Virus record (IMG/VR): IMGVR_UViG_2713897140_000005
DNA length: 5,496 nt
Origin: a virus
Lineage: Duplodnaviria; Heunggongvirae; Uroviricota; Caudoviricetes
Direction: 5' to 3' (one strand)
The translations under genes were made by a program, and so were the position numbers. Shown here piece after piece: positions 1 to 3,274 of the stretch (the stretch's first letter is position 1; each line of letters opens with the position of its first letter). The notes beneath the pieces were generated by a model. That model searched no databases. It saw nothing but the letters and a program-made list of their open reading frames with translations, and had not been told where the DNA came from.

Positions 1-333
1 AATTGCCGTACTCAACGCTTCCTGCGCCGCCAGTAATGCACGGCGTTCCAGGGTATCGAAGATGCAGAGTCGGTGACGCAGCTCGCGCGGAAGAATTGCC
101 AGAACCGCAGGGATCAGTTTCTGAATTTTTTCCCTTTGCGCTTTCGTTTCACCTTTTAACCAACGATGATAGATGTTCTGCTGATTATTCCAGTCCTTGC
201 CTGGTGTCAGAGACAATTCACCTCCCCCCTGGCGCAGATATTCTTCAGTAATTGCGTTAGCGACCCACGCCTGCCCTTTTTCGGCTGCCAGGGCTAACAA
301 CACTGATTCGATGTGCTCATGCCTGATTTTCAT
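1..333 (-). CDS. ydaT: YdaT-like prophage protein (toxin YdaT family); N-terminal 111 codons, 3' end outside the window
   Basis: Found by reading the - strand; absent from the ORF track because it has no stop inside the window. ATG at 333-331, open to position 1, translation MKIRHEHIESVLLALAAEKGQAWVANAITEEYLRQGGGELSLTPGKDWNNQQNIYHRWLKGETKAQREKIQKLIPAVLAILPRELRHRLCIFDTLERRALLAAQEALSTAI. Recognised from memory as the YdaT family of Rac-type prophages. Its start overlaps the stop of the upstream HTH gene (ATGA). Not verifiable without a homology search. Confidence 0.6.
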   Translation of the reverse strand, partial: MKIRHEHIESVLLALAAEKGQAWVANAITEEYLRQGGGELSLTPGKDWNNQQNIYHRWLKGETKAQREKIQKLIPAVLAILPRELRHRLCIFDTLERRALLAAQEALSTAI

Positions 334-572
334 GAATCAACCGCTCCTATGCTGTTTTCGCTATGCTTACCGTCTGGGGGGAATACATCGTCAAGTCCAC
401 AATGAGCGCCAAGCCGATTAAGGGTAGAAACAATTTTTCTGCACTCCTCTAGTCCAGGGGTACGAAAATTTGCTTCGTAATTTGCCAGTCGGCTTTGTAT
501 CCACCCTAACTGAACAGCAAGTTGTCTTTGAGACAGCCCAAGCTGTTTTCGATATGTTGAAATTTTGTTCAT
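330..572 (-). CDS. ydaS: Cro/YdaS-like helix-turn-helix (XRE-type) DNA-binding protein, 80 aa
   Basis: ORF track 330..572 (-). The N-terminal 45 aa (YRKQLGLSQRQLAVQLGWIQSRLANYE) is a typical XRE/Cro HTH. GGAGG Shine-Dalgarno 7 nt upstream of the ATG at 572. Stop TGA (332-330) overlaps the ATG of the YdaT-like gene. Symbol given by synteny (divergent from the repressor, immediately upstream of ydaT), not by sequence identity. Confidence 0.55.
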   Translation of the reverse strand: MNKISTYRKQLGLSQRQLAVQLGWIQSRLANYEANFRTPGLEECRKIVSTLNRLGAHCGLDDVFPPDGKHSENSIGAVDS

Positions 573-668: not shown

Positions 669-1088
669 ATGGAAAAAGAAAACGAAAAAATTGCCGCTAG
701 TAGGCTCAATGACAAAATTGCAATGCGTCTTAAAGAGCGCAGGCAGAAGCTTGGTTTATCTCAAGGAAAACTTGCTGAAATCTGCGGATGGACGCAATCG
801 CGTATAGGTAACTATGAGGCGGGCAGCAGAAATGTTGGAGTACATGACGCTGTCGTATTGGGAAAGGCACTTGGCATATCTCCTCCTGAGCTCCTCTTTG
901 GAGAACAGGAATCTTCTGAATTGTGGTTAAATGAATCCCAACGAAAACTTCTTGAGTTGTTTAACCAGCTACCGGGCTCAGAACAACAACGAATGATTGA
1001 GCTATTTGAAGTCCGGCTAAAAGAAATCGATGAGTATGTAGAAAAATATTTGAGAGGCAGGATTAAAGATAATCCCCCACCGGAATAA
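669..1088 (+). CDS. racR: XRE-family HTH transcriptional repressor (RacR-like prophage repressor), 139 aa
   Basis: ORF track 669..1088. HTH motif RRQKLGLSQGKLAEICGWTQSRIGNYEAG in the N-terminal half, with a C-terminal extension. AAGGA 5 nt upstream of the ATG. Divergent from the ydaS/ydaT-like pair, as racR is in Rac. Symbol assigned by synteny and family, not verified identity. An internal ATG at 720 is an alternative start. Confidence 0.6.
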   Translation: MEKENEKIAASRLNDKIAMRLKERRQKLGLSQGKLAEICGWTQSRIGNYEAGSRNVGVHDAVVLGKALGISPPELLFGEQESSELWLNESQRKLLELFNQLPGSEQQRMIELFEVRLKEIDEYVEKYLRGRIKDNPPPE

Positions 1089-2027: not shown

Positions 2028-2215
2028 TTCCTTACTGGTTGTGTGAGAACTTCAGTAAAGATACCACCAAAGCCCGGAGGTGGTGAAATAAAACCGGGCA
2101 CAACACGAAGGCGCATTTCCGGTATTCATAAAGAGTCGGTCTTGTCTGTGAAATTTAAATGGTGGGAGTGCGCTTCCGGTTGTAAATAACGACATTGCTG
2201 TGTGAAGTACCAGTT

Positions 2216-2257: not shown

Positions 2258-2412
2258 AAGTGAATTTTGTGATGCGGTGAATGCGGCTAAGCGCACGCGG
2301 CACAGTTAAAAGTCATGTTAGTCCTTATTGTTTTGGGTGGGAAAGCCGACTGTAATTGTTAACTGGTTAACGTCACCTGGAGGCACCAGGCACCGCATCA
2401 CAAAATTCACTT
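2258..2412. repeat. Perfect 22-bp inverted repeat flanking a 111-bp spacer
   Basis: Left arm 2258-2279 AAGTGAATTTTGTGATGCGGTG; right arm 2391-2412 CACCGCATCACAAAATTCACTT is its exact reverse complement. The match stops on both sides (2257/2413 and 2280/2390 do not pair). The spacer contains GTTAAC-TG-GTTAAC (2358-2371) and a weak promoter-like TTGTTT-17-TGTAAT (2328-2356). Confidence 0.85.
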
Positions 2413-2533
2413 CGGTGATGAAAGGAAAGAGAAAATGTTGAATGTAGCTATTGAAAACCAGAACGGGTGGAATTATAGTGCACCTGCACCTCATAAAACG
2501 GGTGCCGGGATTAGCACCCCGAAAGTTACTCGA

Positions 2534-2567
2534 GCGCATAACCGCGCTGAAGCGGTTTTTTTATGCG
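2534..2567 (+). terminator. Candidate intrinsic terminator / attenuator hairpin in the leader upstream of the Rha-family gene
   Basis: Inner stem ACCGC (2541-2545) / GCGGT (2552-2556) with loop GCTGAA, followed by 7 T (2556-2562). Outer complementary arms CGCATAA (2535-2541) / TTATGCG (2561-2567). Confidence 0.45.
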
Positions 2568-2591
2568 TAATGCACAGCCACATTCAAATTA

Positions 2592-2669
2592 TGGTGAGGC
2601 GTGCGGGGCAGCCGCAAGGCTGGCCGGGTTCTCGAGTGACCGGTAGTGCTAACCCTGTGCGTCTCACCA
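2592..2669 (+). other. Structured RNA element (long branched hairpin) in the 5' leader of the Rha-family gene
   Basis: 17-bp stem 2592-2608 / 2653-2669 with 14 Watson-Crick pairs plus 3 G-U pairs that exist only in the + strand RNA (they would be C-A on the - strand). It encloses a CAGCC-GCAA-GGCTG hairpin (2609-2622, GNRA loop) and a CCGG...CCGG hairpin (2624-2643). CTCACC (2663-2668) can alternatively pair with GGTGAG at 2693-2698. Confidence 0.4.
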
Positions 2670-2728
2670 CCCATGAGATTAGCACCTCTGCTGGTGAGTT
2701 AATTAACTTATCACTTGAGGATGTCATT

Positions 2729-3274
2729 ATGGCTACTACCCTTTCTCACCCTGACGTAACCATCGAAAATGGTCGCGCCGTCACTACTTCTATTTCGATT
2801 GCTGAGTTTTTTGGCAAGCAGCATCACCATGTTGTTCAAAAAATAGAATCCCTCGAATGTTCTGAACTATTTTTAACCAGCAACTTTTCGCGGGTTAAAT
2901 TCGAACACCGCGGCAATTCTTATAACGCCTACCAAATCACCAAAAACGGCTTCGTTTTCCTGGTGATGGGCTTCACGGGCAAAAAAGCCGCCACATTCAA
3001 GGAAGCCTACATTGCTGAGTTCGACCGCATGGAGGCCGAACTGCGCCAGAATAACACCCCACCTGCTGACAAGATGATTCCGGGTGATGGTCGCACTCTG
3101 GTTGTTCACTTCGACAAATTCGGCAATGTCGAATTCACCGAAACCGTTCCTGATGGCGCACTGGTCTGTACCCTGGAGACTTTCCGGTTTTATCTGGAAA
3201 AACAGGGCTGGACTCTTGTAAACCGGGGCGCAATTAAAAACATGACCGTAGAGCAGTTGCTTTCCTTAAAATAA
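2729..3274 (+). CDS. Rha-family phage regulatory protein, 181 aa
   Basis: MATTLSHPDVTIENGRAVTTSISIAEFFGKQHHHVVQKIESLE... matches the Rha (Phage_pRha) N-terminal signature, and ...GFVFLVMGFTGKKAATFKEAYIAEFDRME is typical of the family. GAGGA lies 7 nt upstream of the ATG at 2729. The ORF track extends the frame to an ATG at 2435 (279 aa, with an AAGGAAAGAG Shine-Dalgarno), but that extension covers the terminator and hairpin above and is unlike a folded domain, so 2729 is preferred. Confidence 0.7.
   Translation: MATTLSHPDVTIENGRAVTTSISIAEFFGKQHHHVVQKIESLECSELFLTSNFSRVKFEHRGNSYNAYQITKNGFVFLVMGFTGKKAATFKEAYIAEFDRMEAELRQNNTPPADKMIPGDGRTLVVHFDKFGNVEFTETVPDGALVCTLETFRFYLEKQGWTLVNRGAIKNMTVEQLLSLK

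Follow-up and report, generated by a model that had tools for sequence, protein, structure and literature searches.

The perfect 22-bp inverted repeat in the window (the whole stretch of DNA analysed, 5,496 nucleotides of the Caudoviricetes virus record IMGVR_UViG_2713897140_000005) forms the closing helix, P1, of a folded + strand RNA domain of about 155 nt. The repeat lies inside a + strand early-left operon of the dicB type, 3' of the terminator of a DicF-like sRNA, and the domain that it closes is recognizable by homology as a divergent copy of the core of the STnc100/PasD prophage sRNAs. The long P1 is probably cleaved by RNase III in read-through RNA, which would free the DicF-like RNA, the core, and the downstream mRNA.

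The inverted repeat and its genomic setting

The two arms (2258-2279, AAGTGAATTTTGTGATGCGGTG, and 2391-2412) were reverse complements at 22 of 22 positions and stood 111 nt apart, as the original prediction had described them. It had also noted that the identity ends sharply on both sides, which agrees with the mismatch of A at 2257 opposite C at 2413, where the pairing ends outside the arms. A chance origin had been judged very unlikely, and this was confirmed: about 7e-7 perfect inverted repeats of at least 22 bp were expected in the 5.5-kb window (an analytic value based on the composition of the window), and a 22-bp inverted repeat was reached in 0 of 200 shuffles. The features of the window are as follows.

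330-572 (- strand) and 669-1088 (+ strand): helix-turn-helix repressor pair, of dicC/dicA- or ydaS/racR-like layout
upstream of the DicF-like sRNA (+ strand): DUF1391 ydfA/ydaF-like gene and ydfB-like gene
about 2100-2188 (+ strand): conserved imperfect long hairpin of about 20 bp, 5' of the DicF-like RNA; counterpart in Qin at about 2665-2760 of sequence L004
2201-2256 (+ strand): DicF-like sRNA, terminator hairpin 2219-2246, U-tract to 2256, abutting the left arm
2258-2279 (+ strand): P1 5' strand, the left arm, of which the inner 9 nt, GAUGCGGUG, are the family-wide P1
2276-2282 (+ strand): GGUGAAU, the end of P1 and a 3-nt junction, invariant in all relatives of both alignments (50 of 50, 64 of 64)
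2283-2298 (+ strand): hairpin A, GCGGC-UAAGC-GC(A)CGC, 5 bp with a 1-nt bulge
2303-2309 (+ strand): helix A (P2) 5' strand, CAGUUAA, partner 2359-2365
2310-2350 (+ strand): insertion variable in length and sequence, where the alignment is gapped
2351-2357, 2359-2365 and 2366-2372 (+ strand): helix B 5' strand, helix A 3' strand and helix B 3' strand
2373-2390 (+ strand): invariant UCA and hairpin P3 (CCUGG-AGGCA-CCAGG), abutting the P1 3' strand
2391-2412 (+ strand): P1 3' strand, the right arm
2420-2437 (+ strand): Shine-Dalgarno (SD)-like AAAGGAAAGAG and ATG 2435, the ATG 23 nt after P1
2451-2479 (+ strand): promoter-like site, its predicted start at the 5' end of isrK
2486-2562 (+ strand): isrK (Rfam, 68.5 bits)
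2587-2674 (+ strand): C4 antisense RNA (Rfam, 78.6 bits)
from 2729, the probable start (+ strand): rha, a Rha-domain gene, after C4

In E. coli FDAARGOS_944, a Rac-type prophage integrated beside ttcA matched the window at 100% identity. The dicB-type operon has its promoter near 1175-1210, followed by the ydfA-like and ydfB-like genes and the DicF-like sRNA. The repeat had previously been placed between two divergent transcription units; it lies instead within the + strand operon, and the 98-aa gene named as its neighbour on one side is an antisense insert. The + strand terminator that had been seen directly before the repeat was found there, as a terminator-like hairpin (2219-2246) with Ts to 2256. 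The repressor pair carries two related operator regions in the form of a 46-nt inverted repeat (594-639/1167-1212, 74% complementary), one copy in the repressor/cro-like intergenic region and the other in the early-left promoter region, where there is a TTGACA at about 1186; these are most likely two operator sets of a DicA/RacR-like repressor. A weak Rfam match to Trp_leader (1058-1144) was merely the terminator after the repressor gene.

The DicF-like sRNA scored 28.6 bits in its Rfam alignment (2201-2251) against a gathering score of 48, could be aligned with Qin dicF and with the copy in Rac, and has a predicted terminator-like site. Its seed (5') region differs from that of K-12 DicF. A similar unannotated DicF-like hairpin occurs upstream of kilR in K-12 Rac. 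The 98-aa ORF (1731-2027, - strand), antisense to the early-left operon, had no Pfam match, occupies the position of sieB in K-12 Rac, and is unannotated by PGAP in FDAARGOS_944.

Downstream of the repeat, PGAP calls a 279-aa "Rha family" protein from ORF 2435-3274, starting at 2435, so that the annotated CDS runs across two RNA genes. Residues 14-105 of this protein match Phage_ASH (PF10554, 61 bits), the Rha domain starts at residue 117, and there is a good SD and ATG at 2729. About 280 bp (2435-2728) are in this way claimed by one protein family and by two RNA families, isrK and C4; the stretch is either dual-coding or an RNA region whose translation yields Ash. Elsewhere the Ash-like ORF is a separate product of 152-153 aa. 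A second module of isrK, c4-a1b1 and C4 is present in the same prophage (L001 1305-1506, - strand), upstream of an ORF6N-domain gene near a tRNA cluster, and the prophage therefore has two C4-type antisense immunity modules.

A conserved RNA domain of the STnc100/PasD type

The 111-nt interior of the repeat had been overlooked as a conserved structured RNA of the STnc100/PasD type. The predicted fold of the element had an energy of -62 kcal/mol (z = -5.1). Fifty non-redundant relatives were aligned with MAFFT, the alignment being gapped over 2310-2350, and RNAalifold recovered from it the closing helix and the hairpin CCNGG-AGGCA-CCNGG. Over the 13 pairs of P1 and P3, 94.8% of cells were paired versus 84.9% in shuffles, and the covariation score was 0.288 versus 0.126 (reached in 0 of 500 shuffles), with all slid registers far lower. 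A second set was a gapless, register-consistent pseudo-alignment of 64 distinct sequences parsed by invariant anchors, and anchor parsing of every copy added three helices: hairpin A, helix A, and helix B. The five helices together were paired in 94.8% of cells versus 72.4% in shuffles, and they had a covariation score of 0.600 versus 0.195 (0 of 500 shuffles), slid registers reaching at most 0.112; for helices A and B the paired percentage is inflated, as their registers come from a pairing-maximising search.

Each of the inner helices showed changes on both sides. Hairpin A, for which 99.4% of cells were paired, had double changes at 4 of 5 pairs and covaried in other subfamilies to CCCCC/GG(N)GGG and CUUUC/GAAAG. 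Helix A changed on both sides at 6 of 6 pairs (97.9% paired) and helix B doubly at 4 of 5 (96.9% paired). In P3, paired in 100% of cells, the middle pair was U-A in 24 and G-C in 40 of the 64 sequences, and the hairpin aligned with the same hairpin of the Rfam STnc100 model. The insertion between the strands of helix A and helix B ranged from 19 to 53 nt among relatives. The 3' strand of helix A sits within the loop closed by helix B, and the two helices are therefore either a pseudoknot or two alternative folds.

Across all helices and relatives there were 122 G.U pairs and 10 A.C. This asymmetry fits + strand RNA alone and excludes both an explanation at the DNA level and a minus-strand RNA, although the minus strand folds about as well. 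The arms in Qin follow the same pattern, with U.G and G.U at sites where the window has C-G and G-C. The variation among relatives thus demonstrates a conserved, covarying helix and the strand on which it forms.

The window copy itself has a mismatched helix B (UGUAAUU/GUUAACG, 5 of 7 pairs), because of which its core may be partly degenerate. The 5' strand of this helix is of the Rac type, which pairs with GUUGCAG, and the 3' strand of the Qin type, which pairs with CGUUAAU; the right arm likewise mixes the Qin-type and another sequence type. Because of these mixtures the window copy looks like a recombinant.

The Rfam STnc100 model (RF02076) aligned at 2263-2404 at a relaxed threshold (34.3 bits, E = 8e-5), over model positions 21-154 of 206, with its outer 8-bp helix coming to lie on the inner portion of the arms. 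The model accommodates P1, hairpin A, helix B, and P3 of the window, which also carries the STnc100 invariants GGUGAAU and GUCACCNGGAGGCAC..GGCAC, and covariation across subfamilies extends to all helices; by homology the interior can be assigned to the structured domain at the 5' end of the prophage sRNAs STnc100, PasD, and EcOnc27. The window copy was below the gathering score of 47 bits, as were all leader-type copies (34.3 bits for the window, 34.4 for Qin, 43.0 for P7), and the 155-bp stretch is therefore left unannotated. Stand-alone relatives with a short P1, taken from the alignment of relatives described above, scored 57-81 bits and are bona fide STnc100.

The spread of the element was searched with 167 nt against 5,426 complete E. 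coli genomes. It was found in 4,642 of them (about 85%), in 10,433 places (median 2 and maximum 9 per genome), as well as in 39 phage records. In K-12 Qin the element fills the spacer between dicF and dicB; in K-12 Rac it separates sieB from kilR, the start of which comes 19 nt after the element; and in the P1-like phages P7 and D6 the core is found upstream of terB. A motif scan of IMG/VR and of one genome per species with the invariant hairpin gave more than 120 further copies, in Escherichia, Shigella, Citrobacter, Enterobacter, Leclercia, Pantoea, and Erwinia. Exact matches to the core motif were also present in metagenome-assembled genomes labelled Veillonella parvula and Candidatus Nanosynbacter (L142, L145), which are most likely mis-binned enterobacterial prophage contigs.

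The copies were found in two kinds of setting. Sixty-five of 95 distinct contexts had an SD and a start codon at a fixed distance of 33-45 nt, the helix ending 7-20 nt before the SD, and what follows is the gene for DicB, KilR, TerB, or a YdaE-like protein or, in the window, the ORF from 2435. The layout of SD and ATG after P1 in the window is the same as in the copies preceding dicB, kilR, and terB. Between 14 and 17 of the 95 contexts had a promoter of their own, a linker, and an intrinsic terminator. Bona fide STnc100 genes often form head-to-tail arrays, in which 3-5 copies with a spacing of about 250 bp stand next to phage tRNA genes and isrI (L099 3800-5227 and 12723-12906; L050 4349-5513 and 8357-8555; L015 342-1038), and the P7 copy is likewise within an operon that contains tRNAs. 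In other words, the dicF-dicB spacer, the kilR leader, and the rha leader are one widespread unannotated RNA domain, a leader-embedded, STnc100/PasD-related form that current annotation misses and that gene callers leave as 155 blank bp.

Two other identities were considered for the element and rejected. Its resemblance to tRNA is limited to a cloverleaf-like topology; ARAGORN found no tRNA, and no match to the Rfam tRNA clan was obtained at E ≤ 1 in the window. Sequestration of the SD was rejected since no conserved start codon comes after the GGAGG in the loop of P3, and the real SD is outside P1.

The long closing helix and RNase III

The length of P1 was compared by folding the 26-nt flanks of each copy as a duplex. 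The dicB-, kilR- and rha-type copies formed 20-22 bp in all 15 distinct arm combinations (dG -26 to -36 kcal/mol), and all other family members had 4-9 contiguous P1 pairs (dG -6 to -17 kcal/mol). The window P1, with 22 contiguous Watson-Crick pairs and a duplex dG of -35.9 kcal/mol, is the longest and the only perfect version in the family. The differences among DicF-linked arms were G.U wobbles, 1-nt bulges, and double compensatory changes, of which there are two in L044. A DicF-type terminator was directly upstream of 39 of 39 distinct long-P1 copies but of 0 of 33 short-P1 copies, demonstrating an exclusive link between the long helix and DicF. The extension that makes the difference is the outer 13 nt of the left arm in the window, which are confined to copies following DicF.

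A reported end of DicF maps into this helix in Qin. According to passages in PMC5069750 and PMC9438474, which cite Faubladier 1990, the full-length dicBF RNA is processed by RNase III to a 72-nt DicF, the terminated form being 53 nt. The annotated Qin DicF ends at L004 2935, so that the 19 additional nucleotides lead to L004 2954, the middle of the 19-bp Qin helix (2945-2963/3074-3092); this position depends on the true end of the 53-nt form, with an uncertainty of about 5 nt, and is inside the arm if the U-tail is included. The left arm of the window is identical to Qin at the relevant position, from AAAGUGAAUUUUGUGAUG onward, and L004 2954 corresponds to window 2270. RNase III leaves a 2-nt 3' overhang and has a binding valley that fits about 22 bp, and in vivo at least one G-C pair is expected between its cuts (PMC6212723).

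The events may be pictured as follows. RNA polymerase would read through the DicF-like terminator, giving a + strand RNA that contains the domain, in which P1, extended from the family-wide 6-9 bp to 20-22 bp after DicF, would offer one RNase III binding length. A staggered double cut in the middle of P1 is predicted at about 2270|2271, because the end of the 72-nt Qin DicF can be transferred by way of the arm identity, and at about 2401|2402, because of the 2-nt 3' overhang rule; these cuts would enclose one G-C and one U-A pair, in agreement with the G-C rule. Three products would result: a DicF-like sRNA lengthened at its 3' end by about 19 nt; a core of 131 nt (2271-2401), retaining 9 bp of P1 as a stub, which matches the P1 length elsewhere in the family; and a downstream mRNA with a new 5' end about 33 nt before ATG 2435. 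The cut in the window copy and its exact coordinates are predicted by analogy with Qin.

The window element can be regarded, from its sequence and position, as an orthologue of the processing site already described for K-12 Qin. It is directly 3' of a DicF-type terminator, the arm starting at 2258, with the repressor pair and DUF1391 upstream; it would form about two turns of double-stranded RNA (20-22 bp, here 22 bp); and it is homologous in sequence to the Qin helix at the mapped cleavage position.

The imperfect hairpin 5' of the DicF-like RNA is probably a second RNase III site. RNase III is reported to generate the 5' end of a 190-nt DicF species (Ragunathan 2023), and this end maps to the 3' strand of the upstream hairpin in Qin, at L004 about 2746-2751 (GUGCGC|UUCCGG). 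DicF appears, we infer, to be bracketed by two RNase III helices, which would reconcile both published accounts. Between the upstream hairpin and dicF, Qin carries about 105 nt of additional sequence that is absent from the window and from Rac. The dicB/kilR locus is unmentioned in the main text of published transcriptome-wide RNase III maps, a silence that is uninformative because the operon is normally repressed, and the kilR/OxyS paper contained no transcript mapping of the kilR leader.

The original prediction had offered three roles for the repeat, namely an invertible switch, an RNA duplex processed by RNase III in a leader, and a miniature inverted-repeat element (MITE) or cruciform site. 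The evidence favours the second. The duplex was supported indirectly, by the 72-nt DicF end in the middle of the Qin helix, but the leader was not the expected one: the substrate would be read-through RNA of the dicB type, and the isrK promoter (2451-2479) starts downstream of the repeat.

Processing at P1 would give a structural basis for the alternative 3' end of DicF described in 1990, as the helix joins the sequence after the dicF terminator to the sequence before the next gene. DicF, DicB, and KilR are inhibitors of cell division that need tight limits, and DicF also affects the virulence of EHEC. A processing module that apportions DicF, core RNA, and toxin mRNA from one transcript would be a testable control point.

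It is also possible, and is put forward tentatively, that the core of about 131 nt is itself a functional RNA: a pseudoknotted five-helix domain, delivered either as the 5' domain of STnc100/PasD or by RNase III excision beside DicF, which may present a conserved surface that binds a host or phage factor or may act as a switch between helices A and B. The core, with its invariant junction and loop nucleotides, is conserved across Enterobacterales prophages. If this is true, some 85% of E. coli genomes would have a second and previously unrecognised mode of delivery of the core, K-12 with Rac and Qin among them.

Much less likely than processing by RNase III is that the long P1 serves only to force or insulate folding of the core within a polycistronic RNA, or to protect or tune the downstream mRNA (ash, dicB, kilR), cleavage by RNase III being incidental or absent. 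P1 closes the domain in every family member, the end of the helix 7-20 nt before the SD and the fixed 33-45 nt to the start codon in 65 of 95 contexts would suit such a role, and the downstream dicB and kilR are toxic and need tight control, kilR being kept silent by NusG- and Rho-dependent control (PMC5793797). However, a purely structural role does not explain why 20-22 bp are confined to copies that follow DicF, when the P7 terB leader needs a P1 of only 9 bp, nor the RNase III-dependent 3' end of DicF that the passages cited above place inside the homologous helix. A structural role of P1 is possible alongside cleavage by RNase III, and the two are not exclusive.

A repeat acting as DNA, whether a MITE, a cruciform site, or a pair of protein-binding sites, is very improbable. 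The element is indeed multi-copy in E. coli (median 2, up to 9 places per genome), and the core occurs in varied phage contexts, including the dicB, kilR, rha, and terB leaders and sRNAs at moron sites. However, the copies lie at syntenic prophage positions and share, in every case, the transcribed strand with the gene that follows; upstream of the left arm the DicF-like RNA is homologous as well, so that the arms are not the ends of an element; and the asymmetry between G.U and A.C, with the compensatory changes, indicates selection on RNA. The search for other copies of the 22-mer that had been proposed found none beyond the two arms in the 24.8-kb surrounding prophage with up to 3 mismatches allowed, which speaks against a MITE, as does the absence of a visible target-site duplication at the arm flanks. 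The suggestion of a MITE or cruciform was thus not borne out, the arms being of 4-22 bp, syntenic, in fixed orientation, and free of such a duplication.

An invertible switch, in which a site-specific recombinase would flip the 111-bp segment and alter flanking expression, can practically be dismissed even though the layout, a short segment between transcription units with a perfect inverted repeat around it, would suit one: comparison of both orientations among genomes found only the native one in the 4,642 E. coli genomes (0 of 10,434 places flipped), the flipped sequence, searched as a synthetic query in 5,426 E. coli genomes, gave only read-through alignments with full coverage at about 72% identity, in records with a native match of 98.7-100%, and the variation in arm length from 4 to 22 bp among relatives, with compensatory, strand-specific G.U changes, is unlike that of DNA recombination sites and is of an RNA type. 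The earlier statements that the window holds no recombinase and no visible target-site duplication were upheld; no invertase was found in the window or its 24.8-kb context, where the only enzymes of this kind are the prophage integrase IntR and an excisionase about 7 kb away, and no promoter-like site was predicted in 2280-2390.

Comparison with known systems

The put-type antiterminator of HK022 was considered as an identity for the element and rejected, since its published architecture differs; no similarity to put was found, as judged from that architecture. Like put, the window element is a cis-acting structured RNA of a lambdoid early operon with no dedicated phage protein. The put element is about 70 nt, with two stem-loops in a V, and binds the zinc-binding domain of the RNA polymerase beta' subunit (PMC9378689), whereas the window element, of 125-155 nt, forms a closed junction of several helices and lies about 1 kb from the promoter.

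With STnc100, PasD, and EcOnc27, which are sRNAs of lambdoid prophages (association with Hfq and a trans-acting seed have been reported for EcOnc27 and PasD), the window copy shares the core fold, GGUGAAU, the hairpin A loop C-UNNGC-G, and GUCACCNGGAGGCACNNGGCACC. In the stand-alone genes a dedicated promoter directly precedes P1, which is short (4-9 bp), and a linker that is single-stranded leads to an intrinsic terminator 30-40 nt beyond the helix. The window copy, in contrast, is embedded in an operon, has a P1 of 22 bp followed by an SD and an ATG, and has a sub-threshold Rfam score. It is without the module of linker and terminator, and signs of a stand-alone gene were not found at it: prediction gave no promoter of its own, the DicF terminator being in the place of a promoter-like site, and the SD and ATG are in the place of a 3' terminator.

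The closest likeness is to the 3' RNase III site of dicF in Qin. Both sites directly follow a DicF-type terminator in an early operon controlled by dicA/dicC, and they share the left-arm sequence AAAGUGAAUUUUGUGAUG and a helix across a core of about 110-130 nt that ends just before the next SD. They differ in the helix, which in Qin is of 19-21 bp with two G.U pairs and in the window is a perfect 22 bp, and in the next gene, which is dicB in Qin and in the window is the Ash-like/Rha ORF with an isrK-C4-rha module that has its own promoter. The host element also differs, the window being from a Rac-type prophage at ttcA, and the cut is reported for Qin only and is predicted here.

RNase III sites in phage early operons include the lambda N-leader site, sib, and the early intercistronic sites R1-R5 of T7. 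These are helices of about two turns that lie between functional units and are cut by host RNase III, which separates the RNAs and sets their ends, and the 5' or 3' ends so made govern stability or translation. The window helix has no sequence relationship to the lambda and T7 sites. They are simple irregular hairpins, whereas the window helix encloses a conserved domain of several covarying helices, which occurs as an independent sRNA module as well.
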